A stretch of DNA of 64,000 bases from an uncultured Thermodesulfobacterium sp. (GTDB taxonomy: Bacteria; Desulfobacterota; Thermodesulfobacteria; Thermodesulfobacteriales; Thermodesulfobacteriaceae): positions 1,245 through 65,244 of the forward strand of contig CALLJG010000011.1 in assembly GCA_938091335.1 (NCBI GenBank), in the 5' to 3' direction. Numbering within the stretch: the first letter of the stretch is position 1; each line of letters begins with the position of its first letter. A program made the position numbers and the translations under genes. The notes under the pieces were generated by a model that worked only from the letters and a program-made list of their open reading frames with translations, was not told where the DNA came from and searched no databases. Positions 22,880-44,004 of this stretch are shown here, piece after piece.

Positions 22880-22952
22880 AGCCGGCGGAGGGAGTTGAAC
22901 CCTCAACCTTGGGATTACAAATCCCACGCTCTGCCCATTGAGCTACGCCGGC
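22880..22952 (-). tRNA. tRNA-Thr (anticodon UGU)
   Basis: The reverse complement GCCGGCGTAGCTCAATGGGCAGAGCGTGGGATTTGTAATCCCAAGGTTGAGGGTTCAACTCCCTCCGCCGGCT folds as a cloverleaf. The anticodon loop is TTTGTAA. Confidence 0.9.
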
Positions 22953-22971
22953 AAGGATTTTATTGAGGCTT

Positions 22972-23063
22972 CGGAGGAGGCGGGATTCGAACCCGCGGCA
23001 CGAGCTTATCACCCGTGCACTCGCTTAGCAGGCGAGCGCCTTCGACCTCTCGGCCACTCCTCC
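22972..23063 (-). tRNA. tRNA-Ser (anticodon GCU), long variable arm
   Basis: The reverse complement is GGAGGAGTGGCCGAGAGGTCGAAGGCGCTCGCCTGCTAAGCGAG...GGTTCGAATCCCGCCTCCTCCG. The anticodon loop is CTGCTAA and the variable arm is about 20 nt. Confidence 0.9.
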
Positions 23064-23074
23064 AATTTTTAAAA

Positions 23075-23146
23075 TTCCGGGGCGTGGATTCGAACCACGA
23101 TTCTGGGAGCCAAAGTCCCATGTCCTGCCAGTTAGACGACCCCGGA
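23075..23146 (-). tRNA. tRNA-Gln (anticodon UUG)
   Basis: The reverse complement is TCCGGGGTCGTCTAACTGGCAGGACATGGGACTTTGGCTCCCAGAATCGTGGTTCGAATCCACGCCCCGGAA. The anticodon loop is CTTTGGC, and the U1-A72 pair is typical of bacterial tRNA-Gln. Confidence 0.9.
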
Positions 23147-23215
23147 ATTTTAATTTAATATAACATTTCTTTATTTTTTGTAAAGTCATTTATTTTATCA
23201 AAAATTTAATAAACA

Positions 23216-23243
23216 TTGACAAATTAAATTTTAATTTTAATAT
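23216..23243 (+). promoter_or_regulatory. Putative sigma-70 promoter of the fur operon (TTGACA-N16-TAATAT)
   Basis: A perfect -35 hexamer at 23216-23221 and a TAATAT -10 at 23238-23243, about 35 nt upstream of the fur ATG. The AT-rich background raises the chance of a false positive. Confidence 0.4.
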
Positions 23244-23276: not shown

Positions 23277-23741
23277 ATGAGATCATCTTTAAAAACTAAG
23301 GAAAATATAGAACTTGTTAAGGAATTTAAAGAATTTATTAAAAAAAAAGGACTAAAATATACTTCAGAAAGAGAAGAAATTTTAAAAGAGATTTTAAAAG
23401 TTAAAGACCATTTTGATGTGGAGGAACTTTATATGAAATTGAGAGGAAAGGGAAGCAAAATTTCTAAAGCCTCAGTGTATAGAACAATTTCTCTCCTTAT
23501 TGAAGCAGGTTATATACAAGAAGTTTATAGACAAAATGCAAGATCTTACTATGAAGTAACATTGGATAAAATTCCTCATCTTCATTTTATTTGCATAAAA
23601 TGCAAAAAAGTAGAAGAAATAATAGAAAATGAATTGATAAAATTAATTCAAAAACATTCCAAACAAAAAAATTATGCCCCTTTAACATATCATTTAGAAA
23701 TTTTTGGTATATGTTCAGATTGTATAAAAAGTATCAGTTAA
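23277..23741 (+). CDS. fur: Fur-family metalloregulator
   Basis: Winged-helix region SKASVYRTISLL, an HLHFICIKCKKVEEI metal site and a C-terminal CSDC pair. 154 aa. Confidence 0.85.
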   Translation: MRSSLKTKENIELVKEFKEFIKKKGLKYTSEREEILKEILKVKDHFDVEELYMKLRGKGSKISKASVYRTISLLIEAGYIQEVYRQNARSYYEVTLDKIPHLHFICIKCKKVEEIIENELIKLIQKHSKQKNYAPLTYHLEIFGICSDCIKSIS

Positions 23742-23757: not shown

Positions 23758-24036
23758 ATGTTACTTATTAATGCTAAATGTGGAGATAAAATAGAAATAA
23801 AAGAATTTTTAGGTAAAGATGCTATATTAAAGAAAATAGAAGCTATGGGATTAAGGAAAGGTGATATTTTTGAGATAGTTAAAAAATGGGGAAGAAATTT
23901 TTTGTTAAAAAGTGGTAATAATAGAATTGTACTTAGTGCTGAAATTGCAAAAAATATAAAAATAGAATTAATAGAAAGAGATTTTAGTGATTGTGAGGAA
24001 AGATCTTGTTGGAAAAGATGGAGATGGTTTAAATGA
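23758..24036 (+). CDS. feoA: FeoA-domain protein with a Cys/Trp/Arg-rich tail
   Basis: SH3-like FeoA pattern (GDKIEIKEF...ILKKIEAMGLRKGDIFEIVKK...NRIVLSAEIAKNIKI). A strong GGAGGG RBS lies upstream. The tail reads CEERSCWKRWRWFK. Confidence 0.7.
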   Translation: MLLINAKCGDKIEIKEFLGKDAILKKIEAMGLRKGDIFEIVKKWGRNFLLKSGNNRIVLSAEIAKNIKIELIERDFSDCEERSCWKRWRWFK

Positions 24037-25010
24037 AAAAAAGAAAATTTATAAGGCTACCTTTTTCTACTCAAGTAGAATTTTTTTGGAAAAATTCAAG
24101 TTATAAAGCTAATTTAAAAAATTTAAGTTATGGAGGAGCTTTTATTGAGAGTGAAATTATACCACCTAAAGACGAAGAAATATCTCTCATACTTTTTGTA
24201 AAAGAAAATATTCCTTCTATAAAAATCTTTTTAAAAGGAAAAGTTGTAAGAAATGAGCCAGAAAAAGGTTTTGCTATCAAATATACATATATTTCTTCAG
24301 AAAGTTTTAATCACTTTAAAAATCTTATTTATTATAATTGCCCATCCCCAGAAATTGCAGAAAAAGAATTATATAGATTTCTTGATGAAGCACATCCTTT
24401 GATTAAAAGTTTGAAAACCCTTATTATAATTGGATTAAAAGAAGAACTTATGAAGTATATTTTAGAAAGAGCCTTTTTATATAATCCTAATAATCCCTTT
24501 ATTTTATCAAGTGGAAAAAAAAGTCCTTATTATCTAGATTGTAGAAAAATTACTTTATATTCTCCAAGCTTTAATCTTATTGGGAATTTATTTTGGCAAG
24601 AGATTAAATATTTAGGAGTAGATGGAATAGCAGGAATGAGTATAGGAGCAGATCCAATTGTATGTGCCATTTTATCCAAAGCTTATGAAGAGAATATTTC
24701 CTTGGAAGGTTTACTCATAAGAAAAGAACCTAAAAAATATGGTACCCAAAAACAAATAGAAGGAAATTTAGTAGAGAATATGGAAATAGTATTAGTTGAA
24801 GATGTAGTAACTACCGGCTCTTCTGTTATTAAAGCTTTATCAGTTTTAGAAAAAAATAAAGTAGAAGTTATAAAAGTAATTGCCTTAATTGATAGAGAAG
24901 AAGGAGGAAAAGAAAATATTGAAAATTATGGATATAATTTTTATGCTTTTTTTACTTTAAATGAGATTATTGAAAATTATCAAAAAACTTATAAAGGAGG
25001 TAGGTTATGA
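24033..25010 (+). CDS. pyrE: PilZ domain fused to orotate phosphoribosyltransferase
   Basis: aa 4-8 RKFIR (RxxxR) and aa 30-35 NLSYGG ((D/N)xSxxG) are the two PilZ c-di-GMP motifs. From about aa 135 there is a complete short-type OPRTase (LSSGKKSPYYLDCR, IRKEPKKYG, VLVEDVVTTGSS, IDREEGG). Confidence 0.85.
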   Translation: MKKRKFIRLPFSTQVEFFWKNSSYKANLKNLSYGGAFIESEIIPPKDEEISLILFVKENIPSIKIFLKGKVVRNEPEKGFAIKYTYISSESFNHFKNLIYYNCPSPEIAEKELYRFLDEAHPLIKSLKTLIIIGLKEELMKYILERAFLYNPNNPFILSSGKKSPYYLDCRKITLYSPSFNLIGNLFWQEIKYLGVDGIAGMSIGADPIVCAILSKAYEENISLEGLLIRKEPKKYGTQKQIEGNLVENMEIVLVEDVVTTGSSVIKALSVLEKNKVEVIKVIALIDREEGGKENIENYGYNFYAFFTLNEIIENYQKTYKGGRL

Positions 25011-26032
25011 AAAGGATGTTATGTTTTTTATTATTAATTTTTTTATTTATTTTTGGATGTAAACCATCTTCTGAACCTTCTAAAATTAAAAGGATTATTA
25101 ATGGAGCAGGAGCCACTTTCCCTTATATTCTTTATGCCAATTGGACTAATGAGTATTATAAACTTACCGGAGTTAAGATTAATTACCAATCTATTGGTTC
25201 GGGAGGGGGTATTAGACAAATTATAGAAAGGACTATTGATTTTGGAGCAAGTGATTTACCACTTTCTCCAGATGAAGTAGAGAAAAAAGGCTTATTACAA
25301 TTTCCTACAGTTATAGGAGCTGTAGTACCAGTAGTAAATGTTCCGGAAATTAAAAATGAGAAATTAATTCTTGATGGAGAAAGTTTATGCAAAATCTATC
25401 TTGGTAAAATTAAAAAATGGAATGATCCTCAAATTAAAGCTTTAAATCCAAATCTTTTTCTTCCAGATAAATTTATTACTCCTATATATAGATCTGATGC
25501 CTCTGGAACAACAGCCATTTTTACTCATTATTTAAATGGGAGCTGTAAAGAATGGAAAGTTCAAATAGGTTTTGGAACAGCTGTTAATTGGAGGGTAGGA
25601 ATAGGAGCCAAAGGAAATGAGGGAATAGCAAATTATGTTAAAAAAACTCCTTATACTATTGGGTATGTGGAACTTGCCTATGCCATTCAAAATCGACTTT
25701 CTTATACTAAACTTAAGAATATGTCAGGAAATATAGTAGAGCCAGATGAGGAAGCTATAAAAGCAGCTCTTTCAAAAGCTGACTTTAATCCTTTAAAGCA
25801 TTTTTATGTATGGCTTACTAATGTTCCAGAAGATAAAGCCTGGCCTATTGTAGGTGCGACTTATATTCTTCTTGCAAGGGATAAAAAAGAGATTAATAAA
25901 GAAGTAGTTAAATTTTTTGATTGGGCTTTTAAAAACGGAGACGATTCAGCTAAAAAATTAACTTATATTCCTTTATCTGAACAAATAAAGGAAAAAATTA
26001 GAAATTATTGGAAAAATTTTGGTATTTTTTAA
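25007..26032 (+). CDS. pstS: Phosphate ABC transporter substrate-binding protein
   Basis: Lipoprotein-type signal (LFIFGC), with GAGATFP, YQSIGSGGG and RSDASGTT motifs. Confidence 0.9.
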   Translation: MKRMLCFLLLIFLFIFGCKPSSEPSKIKRIINGAGATFPYILYANWTNEYYKLTGVKINYQSIGSGGGIRQIIERTIDFGASDLPLSPDEVEKKGLLQFPTVIGAVVPVVNVPEIKNEKLILDGESLCKIYLGKIKKWNDPQIKALNPNLFLPDKFITPIYRSDASGTTAIFTHYLNGSCKEWKVQIGFGTAVNWRVGIGAKGNEGIANYVKKTPYTIGYVELAYAIQNRLSYTKLKNMSGNIVEPDEEAIKAALSKADFNPLKHFYVWLTNVPEDKAWPIVGATYILLARDKKEINKEVVKFFDWAFKNGDDSAKKLTYIPLSEQIKEKIRNYWKNFGIF

Positions 26033-26098: not shown

Positions 26099-27034
26099 GT
26101 GAGAAAATTAAGTCATTATTTAGAAATACTTATTAAGTATTTTTTATGTTTTTGGGCTATTTTTTCTGGGCTTATTTTTCCTTTTATAGTTTTTTTTCTT
26201 CTTTTTTATGAGTCTCGTTTAGCTATTAAGCATTTTGGAATTATTAAATTTATAACTTCTCAAACCTGGGATCCTGTAACTGAAAAATTTGGTGGTCTTG
26301 CAATGATAACTGGAACTATAATAAGTACTTTTATTGCTATTCTTATTGCAGCTCCAGTTTCTATTGGAATAGCTATTTTTATTACCGAACTTGCTCCATC
26401 ATGGTTAAAAAATGTGATTTCAAGTGCCATAGAACTTTTAGCTGCTATTCCTAGTATAATTTATGGAATGTGGGGTTTTTTTGTTCTTACCAATTTTATG
26501 AGAAATTATATAGAACCTGCTTTACAATTTTTTTTTGTTCCCCTTCCTTTTATAGGTAAATTTTTTTCTGGGGTTCCTACTGGAATTGATGTTCTTACGA
26601 CATCTTTGGTTTTATCTATTATGATTATTCCTTTTATGAGTTCAATTGTAAAGGATTCTTTTAATCTTGTGCCTTTAGTAATGAAAGAATCAGCCTATAG
26701 CTTAGGAGCTACTAAGTGGGAAGTTATAAAAGATATTGTTATTCCTTATACTGTATCTGGAATTACTGGAGGACTTGTTCTTTCAACAGGAAGAGCTTTA
26801 GGAGAAACCATGGCAGTTACTTTTTTGGCAGGAAATGTCACACAAGTTCCTACCTCTCTTTTTTCTCCTTTTACTACTATAACTGTGGCTTTAGCTAATC
26901 AGTTTACAGAAGCTGATACCCCTCTTTATCTTTCTTCCCTTTTTTATCTTTCTCTCATTCTTTTTGTTCTTTCTTTTATCCTTCTCACTTTTGCTAAACT
27001 ATTGATTTTGAGGTTACAAAAGAAATGGAAATAA
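26099..27034 (+). CDS. pstC: Phosphate ABC transporter permease PstC (GTG start)
   Basis: Multi-TM permease with an EAA-like loop (ESAYSLGATKWEVIKDIVIPY) in pst operon context. Confidence 0.9.
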   Translation: MRKLSHYLEILIKYFLCFWAIFSGLIFPFIVFFLLFYESRLAIKHFGIIKFITSQTWDPVTEKFGGLAMITGTIISTFIAILIAAPVSIGIAIFITELAPSWLKNVISSAIELLAAIPSIIYGMWGFFVLTNFMRNYIEPALQFFFVPLPFIGKFFSGVPTGIDVLTTSLVLSIMIIPFMSSIVKDSFNLVPLVMKESAYSLGATKWEVIKDIVIPYTVSGITGGLVLSTGRALGETMAVTFLAGNVTQVPTSLFSPFTTITVALANQFTEADTPLYLSSLFYLSLILFVLSFILLTFAKLLILRLQKKWK

Positions 27035-27864
27035 CAGTTTTAAAGAGAAAATTAATAAGCCATTTAATGTTAGTTATTTCTTTTTTTACTGCTATGTATG
27101 GACTTTTTTGGTTATTTTGGATTTTAGGAACTCTTTTTATTAATGGATTTAGATATTTATCATTAGATCTTTTTTTACAAGATCCAACTCCTCCAGGTAT
27201 TGAAGGAGGAGGTTTAAGACATGCCTTTATAGGACATTTCTTTATCACTTTTTTGGCTACTTTAATAGGGGTTCCTATTGGTATATGTGCAGGGATTTAT
27301 TATGCAGAATATGGTAAAAATTTGAAAATTTTTATGGTGTTTAAAAATATTACGGATATAATGGTAAGCACACCCTCTATTATTATGGGTGCTGTATTTT
27401 ATGCTTTAATAGTAGTTCCTTTTAAACAATTTAATGCTTTTTCTGGAATTTTATCATTAGCTTTGCTTATGGTTCCTGTAATAAGTATAACCACTTATGA
27501 GATGTTAAGTTTAGTTCCAGATACCTTAAGAGAAGCAGCTTATGCACTTGGAGCTTATAAATGGCAAATTATAAAGGATGTTACTTTAAAATCTGCCAAA
27601 TTTGGGATTTTAACCGGTGTTCTTCTTGGAGTAGCAAGAATAACAGGTGAAACAGCTCCCCTTCTTTTTACTGCCTTTAATAATTCTTATTTATCTTTTG
27701 ATCTTTTTAAACCAATGGCATCTTTAACAGTTACTATTTTCAATTATGTAATGGGACCTTATGATTATTGGCACAAGCAGGCTTGGGCAGCTTCTTTATT
27801 TTTAACTCTTTTGGTTTTAATTTTGTCTCTATTTGCTAAAATGATATTTCATAAAAAGGGTTAA
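27025..27864 (+). CDS. pstA: Phosphate ABC transporter permease PstA
   Basis: The [17 protein letters not shown] loop and [14 protein letters not shown] motif, following pstC in the operon. Confidence 0.9.
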
Positions 27865-27866
27865 AA

Positions 27867-28625
27867 ATGGAGAGAAAGATAGAAATAGAAGTAAGGGGTC
27901 TCAATTTTTATTATGGAGAAAAACATGTACTTAAAAATATAAATTTATCTATTTTTAAAAATAAAGTTACTGCGCTTATAGGACCGTCTGGATGTGGGAA
28001 AACTACCTTTTTAAGATGCATTAACAGAATGCATGATCTTTATTTAGGTAATAGGTATGAAGGGGAAATAATCTTTGAAAATCAAAATATTCTTGATAAA
28101 AATACAGATCTAATTACTTTGAGAGCTAAGATAGGAATGGTTTTTCAAAAGCCAACTCCTTTTCCTATGAGTGTATTTGATAATGTAGCTTACGGACTTA
28201 AACTTAAAGGAATAAAGGGAGAAGAATTAAAAGCAAGAGTTGAAAAAGCTCTTATTGATGCTGCTTTATGGGATGAGGTAAAAGATAAATTAAAAGAAAA
28301 TGCCTTTTCACTTTCTGGAGGACAACAACAAAGACTTTGTATTGCTAGAGCTATTGCAGTAGAGCCTAAAGTACTTTTATTTGATGAACCAACTTCTGCT
28401 CTCGATCCTATTTCTTCTTCTAAAATTGAAGAATTAATCATAAAATTAAAATCTAAAATCACTATTATAATTGTAACTCATAATATGCAGCAAGCAGCAA
28501 GAATATCTGATTATACAGCTTTTATGTATTTAGGGGAATTGATAGAGACGGGACCTACCGAAAAAATTTTTACTACTCCTGAAAAAAAGCTTACAGAAGA
28601 ATATATTACAGGAAGATTTGGATAA
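27867..28625 (+). CDS. pstB: Phosphate ABC transporter ATP-binding protein
   Basis: Walker [10 protein letters not shown], signature LSGGQQQR and Walker [12 protein letters not shown]. Confidence 0.95.
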
Positions 28626-28627
28626 AA

Positions 28628-29776
28628 ATGCTTATTCCTGAAGGATTTCTTTTTTCAGCAGTTTGTTGCAGAATTAAAAAAGAAAATGAACCAGATTTAG
28701 GTTTAATTTTTTCTCCTCAAAAGCTTAGTGCATGGGGTGTATTTACAACTAATATGGTTAAGGCAGTTCCTGTACTTATAAGTAAAACCCATCTTAAAGA
28801 AAAAGAAATTTATGGACTTGTTGCTAATAGTGGAGTAGCTAATGCTTGTACTGGTGAAGAAGGATTTAAAAGGGCTCAGATTATTCTTAAAGAAATTGCA
28901 AAAAGATTAAATATTCCTTATAAGAGTTTATTAGCTGCTTCAACAGGAATAATAGGAAAACAACTGCCTATTGAAAAAATTTTACCACTAATAGACACTT
29001 TAATTGGTACTCTTTCTCCTCATAATTATTTTCAATTTGCTAAAGCAATAATGACTACTGATACCTTCCCAAAGATAACTTTTAGAAAAACAGAAGAAGG
29101 TATTGTAATTTTAGGTATAGCAAAAGGTGCGGGAATGATTGCTCCTAATATGGCTACTATGCTTGCTTTTATATTAACTGATGCAAGAGTGACTAAGGAG
29201 TACCTAAAGAGATTCCTTCCTAAAATAGTAGAAGAAACTTTTAATTGTATTTCAATAGATGGAGATACTAGTACTAATGATAGTGTATATATTCTTTCTA
29301 CTAATCTTAAAGAAGTAAAAGATTGGAAAGGTTTTGAAAAAAAATGTTTAGAAGTGGCTAAAGAACTAGCTTATCTTATTGTGAAAGATGGAGAAGGTTC
29401 AAGTAAGGTGATAAAAATTAGAGTAAGAGGTGTAAGAACTAAAAAGACAGCTAAAATTCTTGCAAATTCAGTAGCTAATTCTCTATTAGTTAAAACAGCT
29501 TTTTATGGAGAAGATCCCAATTGGGGAAGAATTTTTTCTGCATTAGGTAAAAGCGGAGTAAAATTTGATCCAGAAAAAATAGAGATTTACTTAAATGGTA
29601 TACCTTGGATTATTAATTTGAAAGTTGTTAAAAATGAAAATAAAATTAAAGAGGAAATGAAAAAATATGAGATAGAGTTATTAATTAAACTAAAAGAAGG
29701 AAAATTTGGTTGTGAAGTTTTAACTACTGACCTAACAGAAGAATATATAAGAATAAATGCACATTACAGAACATGA
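28628..29776 (+). CDS. argJ: Bifunctional ornithine acetyltransferase / N-acetylglutamate synthase
   Basis: Autoprocessing site PNMATMLAFILTDA, with TTDT and DGDTSTND motifs. Confidence 0.9.
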   Translation: MLIPEGFLFSAVCCRIKKENEPDLGLIFSPQKLSAWGVFTTNMVKAVPVLISKTHLKEKEIYGLVANSGVANACTGEEGFKRAQIILKEIAKRLNIPYKSLLAASTGIIGKQLPIEKILPLIDTLIGTLSPHNYFQFAKAIMTTDTFPKITFRKTEEGIVILGIAKGAGMIAPNMATMLAFILTDARVTKEYLKRFLPKIVEETFNCISIDGDTSTNDSVYILSTNLKEVKDWKGFEKKCLEVAKELAYLIVKDGEGSSKVIKIRVRGVRTKKTAKILANSVANSLLVKTAFYGEDPNWGRIFSALGKSGVKFDPEKIEIYLNGIPWIINLKVVKNENKIKEEMKKYEIELLIKLKEGKFGCEVLTTDLTEEYIRINAHYRT

Positions 29777-30534
29777 AAATTTTACTTACCAATGACGACG
29801 GAATTTATTCTGAAGGGCTTTGCGCTTTATATGAATCTCTTAAGCCAGATCATCAGATTCATATTGTGGCTCCAGATGCTGAAAGAAGTGCTGTAGGTCA
29901 AGCTATTACTATAGATCAACCCTTAAGAGTAATGAAAGTAAAAAGAGGGAGATATTTTTGGGGATACGCAGTAAGTGGGACCCCTGCTGATTGTGTTAAA
30001 CTTGCAATATATGAACTTGTAGGTCCTGTAGATCTTGTTATTTCCGGAATAAATAAAGGAGCAAATGTAGGAATAAATCTTTTATATTCTGGAACAGTAT
30101 CTGCTGCTACAGAAGCTAGGATATTGGGATATTCCTCACTTGCAGTTTCTATAGATGCTTATGAAAATATAGATTATTGTTTTGCAGCTAATTTTATTCG
30201 TACTTTTATAGATTATCTTTCTAAATTATCATTACAAACTCCTTTTTGTTTAAATATAAATATACCCCACATTAATCCTTACCAAATTAAAGGAATTAAA
30301 TTTGTTAGACAATCTATAGCAAAGCTTAAAGAATTTTTAGATAAAAGACTTGACTTACATGGTAAAATATATTACTGGCAAGGAGCTGAAGAACATACAG
30401 AAGAGAATCCAGAAACTGATGTAATTTCTCTCAAAAATGGATATATTACTATTACACCTATACATTTTGACTTAACTGATTACTTTACTTTAGAAAAATT
30501 AAAAAAAATAGAGATAAAACTTGATATTTATTAA
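29773..30534 (+). CDS. surE: 5'/3'-nucleotidase SurE
   Basis: ILLTNDDGI, SGINKGAN and YSGTVSAA motifs. Confidence 0.9.
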   Translation: MKILLTNDDGIYSEGLCALYESLKPDHQIHIVAPDAERSAVGQAITIDQPLRVMKVKRGRYFWGYAVSGTPADCVKLAIYELVGPVDLVISGINKGANVGINLLYSGTVSAATEARILGYSSLAVSIDAYENIDYCFAANFIRTFIDYLSKLSLQTPFCLNINIPHINPYQIKGIKFVRQSIAKLKEFLDKRLDLHGKIYYWQGAEEHTEENPETDVISLKNGYITITPIHFDLTDYFTLEKLKKIEIKLDIY

Positions 30535-30587: not shown

Positions 30588-30821
30588 ATGAAAAAAAGAG
30601 GAAGAATAATCACTATAGAAGATGTTAGATTTGTATATGAAAATTATGTTAATATGAGTGCAACAGAAATTGCAGATAAATTAGGTATAAGTAAATTTCA
30701 AGTTAATAAAATTGTTAATGAACTAAGAAAAAGAGGAATTAATGTTCCAAGAAAAATAGGGAAAAAAATTAATGTATATGATAAATTTGTAGATGAGTTA
30801 AGAAAAGAAGGTAAGCTTTAA
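30588..30821 (+). CDS. Small basic helix-turn-helix protein, function unknown
   Basis: 77 aa with a strong AGGAGG RBS 7 nt upstream. An HTH-like segment reads MSATEIADKLGISKFQVNKIVNELRKRG. Confidence 0.5.
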   Translation: MKKRGRIITIEDVRFVYENYVNMSATEIADKLGISKFQVNKIVNELRKRGINVPRKIGKKINVYDKFVDELRKEGKL

Positions 30822-31801
30822 GATAAAATATTGTTTATTAATTCACAATCTTTTTTTATTTGCATTTTAAGTTCTTGGGTAGAAGAAAATTTTAATTCAT
30901 TTCTTATATATTTAATAATTTCAATTTTTATAGTTTTTTCATAGATATCTTTATTAAAATTAAAAATATGTACTTCTACTGAAAGTTCTTTTTCGTTAAA
31001 GGTTGGTCTTGTTCCTATATTTAGAGCACCTTTAAATTTTTTATCTTCATAGCTAACCCAAACTGCGTATACTCCTGCTGGAGGAAGTAATTTTAAGGGT
31101 GATATTTCAAGGTTAGCTGTAGGGAATCCTATTAATTTTCCTCTTTTTTTCCCCTTAATTACTTTACCTAAAATAAAATAAGGTCTTCCAAGAAGTTTAT
31201 TAGCTTCTTCAAATTGTTTATTTTCTATAAATTTTCTTATAAGGGAACTTGAAATTACAATTCCATCAAATACAATTGGGTTAATGATTTCTAATACAAA
31301 TTGATATTTTTGTGAAAGTTTTTTTAGAAATTCTGCATTTCCTTTTCTTTCTTTACCAAATCTGAAATTAAATCCTATTACAAGTCCTTTAGCTTTAAAT
31401 TTATTTATTATATATTCTTTAACAAATGATTCTGGAGAGAGCTTAGCCAAAAAATGTGTAAAGGGAATTAATGCTAAATTTTTAATTCCTATTTGAGAAA
31501 GGATATAAAGTTTTTCTTCGAGGGTGGTAAGAAGTTTAAAATTAGAATCAGAGGAAAGCACAATTCTTGGATGAGGCTCAAAGGATACTATAAGAGGTTC
31601 TACTTTTAATTTATGAGCTAATTTTTGTGTTTTTTCAAAAAGTGCCATATGACCTAAATGGATTCCATCAAAACTACCTATAGTAATTGCAGTATCAAAA
31701 TTTGGGGGTAAATCTTTATGAGAATAGACCTTCAATTTTTCCCTCCAATAGATTGAGAAAGCTATTAAATAAATAAATTGAATCATGAGGTCCTGGAGCA
31801 T
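30818..31801 (-). CDS. ribF: Bifunctional riboflavin kinase / FAD synthetase; start uncertain (in-frame TTG at 31735 is likely)
   Basis: ITIGSFDGIHLGH and the C-terminal riboflavin kinase motifs GFPTANL and IGTRPTF. The first 22 tracked codons overlap the carA 3' end. Confidence 0.85.
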   Translation of the reverse strand: MLQDLMIQFIYLIAFSIYWREKLKVYSHKDLPPNFDTAITIGSFDGIHLGHMALFEKTQKLAHKLKVEPLIVSFEPHPRIVLSSDSNFKLLTTLEEKLYILSQIGIKNLALIPFTHFLAKLSPESFVKEYIINKFKAKGLVIGFNFRFGKERKGNAEFLKKLSQKYQFVLEIINPIVFDGIVISSSLIRKFIENKQFEEANKLLGRPYFILGKVIKGKKRGKLIGFPTANLEISPLKLLPPAGVYAVWVSYEDKKFKGALNIGTRPTFNEKELSVEVHIFNFNKDIYEKTIKIEIIKYIRNELKFSSTQELKMQIKKDCELINNILS

Positions 31802-32849
31802 TTTCTGGATGGTATTGTACAGACATAACTTTTAATTCAGGTATAAACATTCCTTCCAAGGTATTGTCATTTAAATTAATATGAGTAATTATAACAGATT
31901 TTGGTAATTCTTCTTTTTTTACACAAAAACCATGATTTTGTGAAGTGATTTCCACTTTTTTATTAATAAGATTAAGAACAGGGTGATTGATTCCTCTATG
32001 ACCAAATTTTAACTTATAAGTAGTTGCTCCTAAAGCTCTTCCTAAAATCTGATGTCCTAAACATATTCCAAAAATTGGCTTTTTCCCAAGAAAGACTTTA
32101 ACATTCTCAACTAATTTATTTAATGGTGCAGGATCTCCTGGACCATTGGAAATAAATATTCCGTCTGGATTATGGGAAAGAATTTCAAAAGGATCTGTAT
32201 AGGCTGGAAAAACCAAACATTCGCAATTTCTTTCTGTAAAAAGTCTGAGCTGATTGTATTTTAACCCACAATCAATCACAGCGATTTTATATTTAGCTTC
32301 GTTTTTAAAATTTTTGTAATTTTCTTTACCATTTTTACCAAAATAATAAGGTTCTCTACAAGTTACATATTGAACAAGGTCTCTTCCAACATAATCTGGA
32401 CTATCTTTAATCTTTTTTAAAAATTTTTTAGGATCTAAAGTTTCAGTAGTTATTCCTCCTTTCATAGTTCCATATCTTCTTAAATATATAGTAAGGGCTC
32501 TTGTATCTATACTTTCTATCCCTAAAACTTTGTTCTCTGAAAGCCATTCTCCTAAAGATTTTTTAGCTCTCCAATTACTATAAAAAGGCTGATATTCTCT
32601 TATAATAAAACCAGCTACCTGAATTTTATCGCTTTCTATATCCTCATAATTTATTCCGTAATTTCCTATAAGTGGATAAGTCATAGTTACAATTTGATTA
32701 TAATAGGAGGGATCTGTTAAAATTTCTTGATAACCTGTCATCCCAGTATTAAAAACTATTTCCCCAAAAGTTTCCCCTTTCCCTGTAAAGGAGTATCCCC
32801 AAAAATAAGTTCCATCCTCTAACATCACAAGAGCTTTATATTTTTTCAT
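31716..32849 (-). CDS. carA: Carbamoyl-phosphate synthase small (glutaminase) subunit
   Basis: GICLGHQ catalytic Cys, QNHGF and the VQYHPE triad region. 377 aa. Confidence 0.9.
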   Translation of the reverse strand: MKKYKALVMLEDGTYFWGYSFTGKGETFGEIVFNTGMTGYQEILTDPSYYNQIVTMTYPLIGNYGINYEDIESDKIQVAGFIIREYQPFYSNWRAKKSLGEWLSENKVLGIESIDTRALTIYLRRYGTMKGGITTETLDPKKFLKKIKDSPDYVGRDLVQYVTCREPYYFGKNGKENYKNFKNEAKYKIAVIDCGLKYNQLRLFTERNCECLVFPAYTDPFEILSHNPDGIFISNGPGDPAPLNKLVENVKVFLGKKPIFGICLGHQILGRALGATTYKLKFGHRGINHPVLNLINKKVEITSQNHGFCVKKEELPKSVIITHINLNDNTLEGMFIPELKVMSVQYHPENAPGPHDSIYLFNSFLNLLEGKIEGLFS

Positions 32850-33992
32850 TATTTTTCCTTTTTTAATATAGTTTGTTTAGCTTTCCATAACAGATATTCT
32901 CTTATAAAGTCATCTAGATCTCCATTGAGCACTTCTTCTACTTTATATGATTCAAATTGAGTTCGATGGTCTTTGATTATTTTGTAAGGATGCAATGTAT
33001 AAGTTCTTATTTGATTACCCCAGCTTATTTCTTTTTTTTCTCCTATTAAGTTTTCCTTTTTTTGTTCAATTTTTTGTTTTTCCAATTGATAAAGTTTTGA
33101 TTTTAAAATTTTTAAAGCAGTCATCTTATTAAGATATTGACTTCTTTCATTTTGACAGGTTACTATTATTCCAGTAGGAATATGAGTAATTCTTACTGCA
33201 GTTTCTGTTTTATTAACATGTTGCCCTCCATGCCCACTTGCTCTCATAGTTTCTATTTTTAAATCATCTGGTTTTATTTCTACTTCTATTTCTTCTTCTA
33301 TTTCTGGAATTACGGTAATTGAAACGAAGGAGGTATGTCTTTTGGAATTGGCATTAAAAGGAGATATTCTTATAAGCCTATGTATACCTTTTTCCCCTTT
33401 TAAATATCCGTAAACTCCTTTTCCTTCAATAAGTAAAACAGCATTTTTAATTCCAGCTTCCTCTCCTAGAAGGGTATCTACAATCTTTACTTTATATCCC
33501 TTTTTTTCAGCCCATTTTACATACATTCTAAGAAGCATATATGCAAAGTCTTGAGCATCAGTTCCTCCTGTTCCTGCATGAATAGTTAATATAGCTGAAA
33601 ATTGATCATATTCTTCAGATAAAAAAAGTTTAGTTTCTTCAGTTTTAAAAAGTTTTTCAAAAGAAGAAAGTTCTTCTAAAAAGGCTTGAAAAGCTTCTAA
33701 ATTTTTTTCTTCCTTGTAAAGTGTATACCAATCTAAAAGTTCATAAAATTTTTTATTTAAATTTTCAAAAATATTAATTTTGTCTTGAATTTGAGCTTTT
33801 TCCTTAAGAAGATTTTTTATTTTTTGTGATTCCCAATTTTGACAATTTTTAAGTTTTTCTTCAATTTTTGATAGCTGATTTTGCAGATTTTCAAGGTCAA
33901 AGACACCCCCTTAAATCTTGAAGTTTTTCTTCATAATTTTTAATAATTTTTTCAAAATCTATATTTTTATATTCTAATATAAGTCCTTGCAT
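32849..33992 (-). CDS. prfB: Peptide chain release factor 2, requiring a programmed +1 frameshift at 33897-33902
   Basis: Frame 0 runs from ATG 33992: MQGLILEYKNIDFEKIIKNYEEKLQDLRGCL then TGA. After a +1 shift it continues DLENLQNQLSKIEEKL... into the tracked ORF, which carries SPF and GGQHVNKTETAVR (GGQ). Confidence 0.9.
33896..33911 (-). other. RF2 recoding site: AGGGGG-TGT-CTT-TGA-C
   Basis: The minus strand reads TTAAGGGGGTGTCTTTGACC. An internal Shine-Dalgarno-like AGGGGG sits 3 nt before the slippery CUU UGA C, as at the classical prfB site. Confidence 0.85.
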
Positions 33993-43601: not shown

Positions 43602-44004
43602 GGGGGTAGAGTTTAAGAGGTAGTTGCTCTGGTAGATCTTTGAAAAGGTCTACTGGGGAGGAAAGTCCGGGCTCCACAGGGGAGGACGCCGGGTAATACC
43701 CGGAGGGAGTAATCCCTGGACAGGGCCACAGAAAACAGACTACCAGCGGCCAAGAAGTTCTAAAACTTCTTGGTGCGGGTAAAGGTGAAAAGGTGAGGTA
43801 AGAGCTCACCGCACAGGGTGGTAACACCCTGTGGCATGGTAACCCCCGTCCGGAGCAAGGCCAAACAGAGCCAAAGGGTGCCCCGCCCAAAAAGGCTCAG
43901 GTAGGCCGCTTGAGAAGAGGAGTAATCCTCTTCCTAGAAAAATAACTACCACCTGGACAGAATTCTCCAGGTAACAGAACCCGGCTTACTTAAACTCTAC
44001 CCCC
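43602..44004 (+). ncRNA. rnpB: RNase P RNA, bacterial type A
   Basis: The universal P4 strands GGAGGAAAGTCCGGGCTCCA and ACAGAACCCGGCTTA are present. P1 pairs GGGGGTAGAGTTTAAG with CTTAAACTCTACCCCC. The region is GC-rich in an AT-rich genome. Confidence 0.9.

Follow-up and report, generated by a model that had tools for sequence, protein, structure and literature searches.

Several proteins with PilZ domains, well-known receptors of the second messenger cyclic diguanosine monophosphate (c-di-GMP), have been found to act on enzymes. Loaded with c-di-GMP, MapZ of Pseudomonas aeruginosa binds and inhibits the methyltransferase CheR1 (PMC6370697), N5MapZ (XAC3402) of Xanthomonas citri binds the methyltransferase HemK through a contact that c-di-GMP weakens (PMC11250160), and c-di-GMP frees BcsA from auto-inhibition (PMC12564702). 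A survey of the family reports that binding is retained by PilZ domains that are part of fusion proteins (10.1101/814665). The c-di-GMP outputs covered by reviews and surveys are chiefly motility, secretion, exopolysaccharide synthesis, transcription and proteolysis, and no enzyme of pyrimidine biosynthesis is named there as a receptor (10.1101/814665, 10.1101/2020.02.11.943704, PMC12564702). Here we describe a gene in which a PilZ domain is fused to a short-type orotate phosphoribosyltransferase (OPRTase, PyrE), found on contig CALLJG010000011.1 of an uncultured Thermodesulfobacterium sp., of which we analyzed a stretch of 64,000 nucleotides (hereafter the window; 28.5% GC). The fusion is real, conserved and undescribed, and it represents a new output partner for a well-known receptor domain.

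PyrE converts orotate and phosphoribosyl pyrophosphate (PRPP) into orotidine monophosphate (OMP) and pyrophosphate (PPi; EC 2.4.2.10). The gene under study is the following:

24033..25010, + strand: whole PilZ-PyrE fusion gene, 325 amino acids (aa) plus stop, ATG start, uninterrupted

An earlier note on this DNA had claimed a single open reading frame (ORF) of 325 aa at this position, and the frame is indeed ATG-initiated, with 325 codons and no break. The peptides quoted in that note are all in place, namely RKFIR at aa 4-8 and NLSYGG at aa 30-35 in the PilZ part, and SSGKKSPYYLDCR at aa 159-171, RKEPKKYG at aa 230-237, VLVEDVVTTGSS at aa 253-264 and IDREEGG at aa 286-292 in the PyrE part. 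Pfam PilZ (PF07238) covers aa 3-100 with 46.9 bits (E 3.8e-12, profile positions 2-101 of 102), well above its gathering cut-off of 22.5 bits, and Pfam Pribosyltran (PF00156) covers aa 229-295 with 39.3 bits against a cut-off of 26.3 bits. The NCBIfam equivalog-domain model for pyrE, TIGR00336, matches aa 154-311 with 133.5 bits (profile positions 12-172 of 173; curated cut-off 106.8 bits). Both domain assignments that the note had expected are therefore recovered above curated thresholds, and fold searches also support them, with the PyrE half resembling solved OPRTases and the PilZ half resembling c-di-GMP-bound PilZ structures. The domain boundary needed partial revision: PyrE does begin at about aa 132-136, opening with its N-terminal helix, but the preceding ~30 residues are two helices of the PilZ module and do not form a neutral linker.

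A homologue search of 5.8 billion proteins revealed that the same two-domain architecture is present in 63 protein clusters (51-100% identity, 94-100% coverage), drawn from NCBI, JGI, ENA and Logan and including isolate genomes. Precomputed domain matches place PF07238 in all 63 and Pribosyltran also in 61. Where the organism is named, it is Thermodesulfobacterium, Caldimicrobium or an unclassified relative; named sources are T. geofontis (a metagenome-assembled genome, MAG), T. hydrogeniphilum, T. thermophilum, Thermodesulfobacterium sp. TA1, Caldimicrobium MAGs and Thermodesulfobacteriaceae MAGs, to which look-ups of the clusters add T. commune, T. hveragerdense and the RefSeq MULTISPECIES entry WP_051754586.1 on a 1.76-Mb contig. 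The fusion is thus carried by the cultured species T. commune, T. thermophilum, T. hveragerdense and T. hydrogeniphilum. The window protein shares 82% identity with its nearest relative and 73% with the T. geofontis MAG protein, and a scan of genome collections yielded seven loci, all of them fused. The architecture is family-wide in these thermophilic sulfate reducers, and the clade that carries it is narrow.

This distribution bears directly on whether adjacent small pilZ and pyrE genes were wrongly merged by assembly or gene calling. We observed no stop codon or frameshift at the junction, which is predicted as a single helix, and the uninterrupted ORF of the window, whose resolution into two on resequencing the earlier note had named as a refuting outcome, is kept as one ORF in the 63 clusters, isolate genomes included. 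The only irregularities are three homologues lacking their first residues and four apparently unfused sequences (see below), which we do not count as support for a merger, and we regard that explanation as having a negligible probability. The fusion is no sequencing or gene-calling artefact, and it recurs far beyond chance.

The architecture has nevertheless gone unremarked. We found no paper in the searchable literature that links PilZ to OPRTase or PyrE, and the terms phosphoribosyl, orotate and PyrE are unmentioned in the PilZ survey (10.1101/814665), in a PilZ similarity-network study (10.1101/2020.02.11.943704) and in reviews of c-di-GMP receptors from 2023 and 2025. The novelty proposed in the earlier note holds within this literature, but the architecture itself already sits in RefSeq and Pfam-annotated databases and is a family-wide trait as opposed to one unique to this genome. 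Database entries, where they carry an annotation, read "orotate phosphoribosyltransferase" only.

In a neighbour-joining tree built from the PyrE columns, all fused proteins fall into one clade, and its sister clade consists of ordinary PyrEs of 185-192 aa, including Thermodesulfatator atlanticus WP_456371241.1. In two Caldimicrobium-type loci (L003 and L004), tauE-argJ-surE comes next after the fused gene, and L003 extends further into ribF-carA-prfB; in L004 argJ and surE are seen and carA is not. A further locus, L005, carries an unfused pyrE in exactly the tauE-argJ-surE / ribF-carA-prfB context. The argJ-surE / ribF-carA-prfB backbone is common to fused and unfused pyrE loci, and we therefore place the fusion event at the ancestral pyrE locus. 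Taken together, phylogeny and gene order indicate that the fusion has a single origin, in the common ancestor of the Thermodesulfobacterium/Caldimicrobium clade and at the pyrE locus itself.

Nested within the fused clade are four sequences (P0064-P0067) that appear to be unfused and share 64-70% identity with the PyrE half. Three of them lie on contigs of at most 2.4 kb and two have shortened N-termini; the three short-contig sequences may be truncated gene calls. The remaining one, P0066, is the pyrE of L005; it is genuinely unfused and was found on contigs of 19 kb and 14 kb. The in-frame codons ahead of its annotated start (...SLLEIVKLKEKL-MPFILERAF) are homologous to the connector helix of its fused neighbours, and the in-frame stretch at L005 5941-6000 (+), upstream of the pyrE start, reads KLLFWEGRSLLEIVKLKEKL and resembles the same helix. 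These codons look like a relic and point to a secondary loss of PilZ in the L005 lineage. A stand-alone PyrE persisting after PilZ loss is what would be expected if PilZ were a regulatory add-on. A TTG codon at L005 5968 may be the true start of the unfused gene.

We next consider the enzyme half, whose features are:

24438..24992, + strand: short-type PyrE domain, aa 136-320 (TIGR00336, PDB sequence matches, Foldseek)
24507..24545, + strand: hood motif SSGKKSPYYLDCR, aa 159-171, orotate/PPi-binding region (conservation)
24720..24764, + strand: flexible catalytic loop RKEPKKYGTQKQIEG, aa 230-244, aligned to RKETKDYGTKRLVEG of human OPRT 2wns
24789..24824, + strand: PRPP-binding loop VLVEDVVTTGSS, aa 253-264, core of the Pfam PF00156 match
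24888..24908, + strand: IDREEGG motif of PyrE, aa 286-292 (conservation)

Sequence matches of this half in the PDB are the OPRT domain of human UMPS (2wns) and the enzymes of M. tuberculosis (5hkf) and C. diphtheriae (2p1z), and a Foldseek search with the full-length model, in which only the PyrE half was matched, returned 2wns (E 6e-17) and 5hki (target TM-score 0.86-0.89). Alignment of the fused family revealed 23 PyrE positions that are invariant in 63/63 proteins and the same in 19 unfused PyrEs. They comprise S160, G161, S164, Y167, D169 and R171 of the hood, R230, K231, E232, K234, G237, E243 and G244 of the mobile loop, V255, E256, D257, V258, T260, T261 and G262 of the PRPP loop, and D287, R288 and G292 of the DRxxGG motif. 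Neither the 64-kb window nor about 230 kb of related loci revealed another PyrE-like ORF, and among the 120 best PyrE-like matches, most of which are unnamed, no unfused one is named Thermodesulfobacterium or Caldimicrobium. Judged from the window and the fetched loci, the fusion would be the sole pyrE of its genome.

The earlier note had raised, as an alternative, recruitment of the OPRTase fold as an effector. These data also address the corresponding proposal that the phosphoribosyltransferase (PRTase) half is a recruited nucleotide-binding or effector fold, in the manner of PyrR and ComFC, and that a separate canonical pyrE makes OMP. PyrR is a PRTase fold recruited for regulation, so that such co-option has a precedent. 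However, the window protein passes the pyrE equivalog-domain cut-off of TIGR00336, its gene shares synteny with an unfused pyrE, and the fused proteins would be expected under this proposal to coexist with an unfused PyrE, none bearing either genus name having appeared among those largely unnamed matches. An effector-only fold is very improbable because the substrate, loop and PRPP residues are invariant throughout the family and match those of unfused PyrEs, the gene occupies the ancestral pyrE locus, and the sister clade, with its Thermodesulfatator member, is ordinary PyrE. The PyrE half is most likely the housekeeping orotate phosphoribosyltransferase of the lineage.

The receptor half comprises the following features:

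24039..24332, + strand: PilZ beta-barrel domain, aa 3-100 (PF07238, AlphaFold2 strands, Foldseek, dN/dS)
24042..24056, + strand: RxxxR c-di-GMP "switch" motif R4-K-F-I-R8 (conservation; aligned to RRRFHR of PA4608/MapZ)
24120..24137, + strand: (D/N)xSxxG motif N30-L-S-Y-G-G35 (conservation; aligned to DVSLHG of PA4608/MapZ)
24297..24437, + strand: PilZ helical tail and connector, helices aa 89-102, 106-120 and the start of 122-147 (AlphaFold2 secondary structure)

The AlphaFold2 (AF2) model of the full-length protein contains a barrel of six strands (11-19, 22-31, 35-39, 49-56, 63-75 and 79-87; predicted local distance difference test, pLDDT, about 90) that runs into helix 89-102, and a separate model of aa 1-135 likewise yields a six-stranded barrel followed by helices (pLDDT 89). 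Residues 1-10, which carry RxxxR, are modelled at low confidence (pLDDT about 56), and this predicted disorder fits the flexible apo "switch" loop of PilZ domains. When the aa 1-135 model was searched with Foldseek, 28 of the 29 best PDB matches were chains of PilZ proteins, many solved with c-di-GMP, the best being PA4608/MapZ, Alg44, MotI, MrkH, PlzA and PA0012.

Sequence searches with the PilZ half gave a consistent assignment once its closest relatives were included. A phmmer search with this half alone found no significant match among PDB sequences, and a word-index homologue search with it returned a single, uninformative fragment. When aa 1-135 were compared with 1.84 billion representatives in an exhaustive HMMER search, 281 matches were obtained. 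Outside the fused family, the best of them are single-domain PilZ proteins, 120-130 aa long, whose alignment extends from aa 1 to ~118; one of these, P0121, is 34% identical to the PilZ module from end to end. A profile (A3) built from the fused N-termini and these stand-alone relatives matched PA4608 structures (5xly_B, 5y4r_D, 1ywu and 2l74) at E 2.6e-12 to 4e-12 over positions 2-117, with weaker matches to MotI, BcsA, Alg44 and PA0012. Helices 89-120 are common to the fusion, the stand-alone proteins and PA4608, with S91, H94, N102 and E112 conserved. By homology, the PilZ half is a complete single-domain module of the MapZ/PA4608 type.

Both ligand-binding motifs are canonical in the window protein, the second beginning 22 residues past R8. 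Across the family R4 is arginine in 60/63 and R8 in 62/63, the remainder (three and one, respectively) being gaps in truncated N-terminal gene calls, so that RxxxR is present wherever the N-terminus of a fused sequence is complete. At position 30, 40 proteins have D and the other 23 have N, giving D/N in 63/63; S32 is kept in 58/63 (G, A or C in the other five), G34 in 57/63 (another residue in six) and G35 in 56/63 (S in seven), leaving (D/N)xSxxG fully canonical in 51 of the 63 proteins. The seven G35S homologues (P0015, P0036, P0037, P0041, P0045, P0052 and P0055, with motifs such as DLSLGS and DFSIAS) have kept the domain, and their c-di-GMP binding may be altered or lost. Mean pairwise identity is 48% for the PilZ barrel, with values down to about 26%, and 68% for PyrE. 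Ratios of nonsynonymous to synonymous substitution (dN/dS, Nei-Gojobori, pairs with unsaturated dS) are 0.10-0.22 for PilZ and 0.07-0.17 for PyrE. Although more diverged than the enzyme, the PilZ barrel is under clear purifying selection.

Our favored reading is that the fusion is a housekeeping OPRTase regulated in cis by c-di-GMP through a MapZ/PA4608-type PilZ, of single origin and maintained by purifying selection, and we give it a probability of roughly 0.5. The more specific claim, that c-di-GMP directly and allosterically gates a committed step of de novo pyrimidine synthesis via the built-in PilZ, is a serious possibility to which we assign somewhat less than an even chance. Ligand binding, allosteric coupling and physiological role are here inferred from sequence.

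The junction provides a plausible route for such a signal. In the full-length model (pLDDT 91; predicted TM-score, pTM, 0.84), helices 89-102 and 106-120 both belong to the PilZ module, and helix 122-147 continues unbroken into the N-terminal helix of PyrE; unfused PyrEs start about 13 residues ahead of the ERAF/ERSF anchor. In the proposed mechanism, c-di-GMP produced by GGDEF-domain enzymes of the cell would be gripped by the flexible RxxxR loop at the N-terminus on one side and by the (D/N)xSxxG strand of the barrel on the other, and the resulting ordering would re-pack the barrel and its helical tail against PyrE. Because helix 122-147 is predicted to be continuous with the first PyrE helix, which belongs to the N-terminal hood covering the orotate/PRPP site, the change could be passed on to this hood, to the mobile catalytic loop or to the dimer that PyrE obligately forms. 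OPRTase activity would be altered in a direction, inhibition or activation, that is not predictable from sequence. Such an arrangement would be the in-cis counterpart of c-di-GMP-loaded MapZ inhibiting CheR1, and its net effect would be to tie de novo uridine monophosphate (UMP) synthesis and PRPP consumption to the level of c-di-GMP.

The same architecture could instead allow PilZ to bind c-di-GMP without regulating catalysis, either as an adaptor that tethers PyrE in a c-di-GMP-dependent manner, for example to other pyrimidine enzymes, to a polysaccharide-synthesis complex in need of UDP-sugars or to the cell pole, or with PyrE serving as a scaffold while a third protein receives the signal. 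Related single-domain PilZ proteins do act in trans on other proteins (MapZ on CheR1, N5MapZ on HemK), both motifs are conserved across the fused family, and the module is a complete, autonomous unit to which stand-alone PilZ proteins align over its whole length. Yet the compact and confident two-domain model and its rigid continuous helix suggest intramolecular coupling, and no partner is conserved beside the gene, the neighbours differing between Thermodesulfobacterium-type and Caldimicrobium-type loci. We consider a pure adaptor role unlikely, while still credible.

The two closest stand-alone relatives, P0121 and P0127, have no pyrE in their neighbourhoods (L016-L019) and give no support for a PilZ-PyrE pairing in trans; a TauE gene near P0121 is not orthologous to the TauE beside pyrE. 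The PilZ-half search also returned P0228, a protein of 305 aa with PilZ at aa 7-103 and CheX at aa 188-264 by Pfam, which is another enzyme fusion, with a chemotaxis phosphatase, of a PilZ of this subtype.

Several observations weigh against cis regulation of PyrE by c-di-GMP. Twelve of the 63 fused proteins deviate in the second motif (G35S in seven, S32G/A/C in five), all of them falling among P0015 and P0036-P0063, and c-di-GMP binding may be weakened or lost in some sub-clades. The L005 lineage has kept a plausible pyrE, suggesting that PilZ is dispensable for catalysis and, at least there, for viability. No GGDEF, EAL or HD-GYP gene was found in the 64-kb window by motif search, nor any GGDEF or EAL gene by phmmer with a GGDEF-EAL query. 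No c-di-GMP riboswitch was detected in the window or in five related loci at the Rfam gathering threshold. Finally, we identified no diguanylate cyclase whose name assigns it to the genus Thermodesulfobacterium, the named GGDEF-EAL matches coming from Caldimicrobium and an unclassified Thermodesulfobacteria MAG.

We did identify candidate sources of the ligand elsewhere in the clade. An 821-aa GGDEF-EAL gene (L005 3471-5936 (+); L006 1-1785) ends 65 nt upstream of the unfused pyrE P0066, and its protein has full-length orthologues, 45-59% identical to it, in one MAG of Caldimicrobium and one of unclassified Thermodesulfobacteria. The 20.9-kb contig of L014 carries both a fused PilZ-pyrE and an orthologue, about 4.5 kb apart. 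These clade proteins keep RYGGDEF and the RxxD I-site, and from such gene content c-di-GMP machinery is encoded in the clade. In the N-terminal region of the 821-aa protein, a CxxCH (KCLQCH) is flanked on both sides by hydrophobic stretches and may mark a haem-c sensor domain.

Three of the points above, namely the noncanonical second motifs, the loss of the domain in L005 and the lack of a diguanylate cyclase in the window, also favor a reading in which PilZ no longer signals and PyrE is constitutive, with the domain acting as a structural appendage (for oligomerization, thermostability or solubility) or binding another ligand. Some PilZ-family proteins have lost c-di-GMP binding (10.1101/814665), and the PilZ half evolves faster than the PyrE half. 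By contrast, RxxxR in all complete N-termini, D/N30 in 63/63 and the full second motif in 51/63 are hard to explain without ligand-driven selection, because the barrel itself has diverged to about 26% identity. The dN/dS values of 0.1-0.2 and the GGDEF-EAL genes of the clade likewise argue against an inert domain, as does the survey finding that fused PilZ domains keep their binding motifs (10.1101/814665). We therefore regard a silent PilZ as improbable, and retain cis regulation by c-di-GMP as the favored reading.

The surroundings of the fusion gene in the window are as follows:

23277-23741, + strand: fur, upstream of the feoA-like gene (Pfam FUR, 94.3 bits)
23758-24036, + strand: feoA-like gene, 92 aa, stop overlapping the fusion ATG (Pfam FeoA, 44 bits)
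25007-26032, + strand: pstS, PstS-type binding protein (121.7 bits), start overlapping the fusion stop
26099-27034, + strand: pstC (Pfam)
27025-27864, + strand: pstA (Pfam)
27867-28625, + strand: pstB (Pfam)
28628-29776, + strand: argJ (Pfam)
29773-30534, + strand: surE, nucleotidase gene (Pfam)
30818-33538 and beyond, - strand: ribF-carA-prfB, downstream of surE, with carA at 31716-32849

In the window fur, feoA, pilZ-pyrE, pstSCAB, argJ and surE thus form a tight co-directional array. Both ATGA overlaps described in the earlier note are present, between the feoA stop and the fusion start (24033-24036) and between the fusion stop and the pstS start (25007-25010); the translational coupling to feoA and pstS that the note drew from them is a reading of these 4-nt overlaps. 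The order Fur-FeoA-fusion-PstS recurs in L001 (Thermodesulfobacterium sp. TA1-like), the one Thermodesulfobacterium-type locus examined. As a general feature, however, a functional tie to feoA or pstS was rejected, both neighbours being absent from L003, L004 and L014; the two genes are probably not functionally tied to the fusion, and we read the array as genome compaction as opposed to a functional module. The best promoter-like site, TTGACA-16-TAATAT at 23216-23243, lies upstream of fur, but promoter-like matches did not exceed shuffled controls (41 versus 39.1 in this 28.5% GC DNA) and give no evidence either way on an internal promoter. The sole plus-strand terminator-like site from fur to surE lies inside surE.

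Three genes with metabolic functions, carA (carbamoyl-phosphate synthase small subunit), argJ and surE, lie within 7 kb of the fusion, and the association is kept in L003 and L005. The carA product belongs to the first step common to the pyrimidine and arginine pathways. The FeoA-domain ORF (23758-24036, +) has a Cys/Trp/Arg-rich tail (…DCEERSCWKRWRWFK) and is an orphan FeoA, the flanking DNA being free of FeoB genes for about 10 kb in both directions. Directly upstream of the fur-feoA-pilZ-pyrE array, on the opposite strand, is a tRNA-Thr/Ser/Gln cluster (22880-23147, -). The release-factor gene (32849-33934, -; Pfam PCRF and RF-1) has a frameshift site of the prfB/RF2 type: after the ATG at 33934 come AGGGGG and then CTT TGA C, at about 33910-33896, and the frame beyond this site reaches its stop at 32849. 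The ORF list gives only a 229-aa piece of prfB because this programmed +1 frameshift site splits the gene between two frames. Elsewhere in the window, a bacterial class A RNase P RNA is found at 43608-44002 (+; 295 bits).

If the favored reading is correct, this would be, as far as the searchable literature shows, the first PilZ receptor wired to a nucleotide-biosynthesis enzyme, and c-di-GMP signalling would extend into core nucleotide metabolism. A whole family of bacteria would possess a direct link from a purine-derived second messenger to UMP and PRPP flux, which could balance purine and pyrimidine pools or tune UDP-sugar supply and growth to the sessile state. Used as a "Rosetta stone", the fusion would hint at regulation in trans of metabolic enzymes in other bacteria by stand-alone members of this PilZ subfamily. 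Should PilZ regulate PyrE, the protein would also be a natural single polypeptide in which receptor and target are fixed 1:1, and for that reason a good system for studying signal transfer from a MapZ-type PilZ to an enzyme. The fused proteins are small, soluble and available from cultured thermophiles, which should make them tractable for binding assays, kinetics and crystallography, and the naturally PilZ-less variant of L005 offers a ready comparison. Even with an inert PilZ, the family would still carry a conserved sensory domain on a housekeeping enzyme, hidden by the name "orotate phosphoribosyltransferase".

Among known systems, the enzyme half has its counterparts in the short-type OPRTases (5hkf/5hki, 2p1z, 2wns and WP_456371241.1), which have the same fold and share the SSGxxSxYYxDxR hood, GADP, the RKExKxxG...EG loop, the VEDVxTTG PRPP loop and DRxxGG, but lack an N-terminal sensory domain. 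In human UMPS, OPRT is fused to OMP decarboxylase, a catalytic and not a regulatory fusion. BcsA cellulose synthase and Alg44 resemble the fusion in having a canonical PilZ in one polypeptide or complex with a catalytic module, and their folds match; they are, however, membrane-embedded glycosyltransferase systems for exopolysaccharides whose PilZ lies at the C-terminus or close to it, whereas here PilZ is N-terminal and the enzyme, a type I phosphoribosyltransferase, is soluble and belongs to central metabolism. N5MapZ is likened to it by function, as a single-domain PilZ that controls an enzyme by direct contact and shows that the c-di-GMP effect can have either sign, although it works in trans and on another enzyme class.

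The closest parallel is MapZ (PA4608), the top structural match of the fusion's PilZ (5y4r, 1ywu; about 16% identity in the structural alignment). The two are of the same PilZ subtype, with ~115 aligned residues that include RxxxR, DxSxxG and the C-terminal helices (DS..HL..L...N...E), and they would share c-di-GMP-dependent control of an enzyme through protein-protein contact, which for the fusion is a proposal from its sequence. MapZ is a free protein of 125 aa that acts in trans on a chemotaxis methyltransferase. The PilZ described here is, by homology, related to such MapZ/PA4608-like adaptors but differs in architecture, being fused in cis, by a predicted continuous helix, to an enzyme of nucleotide biosynthesis.

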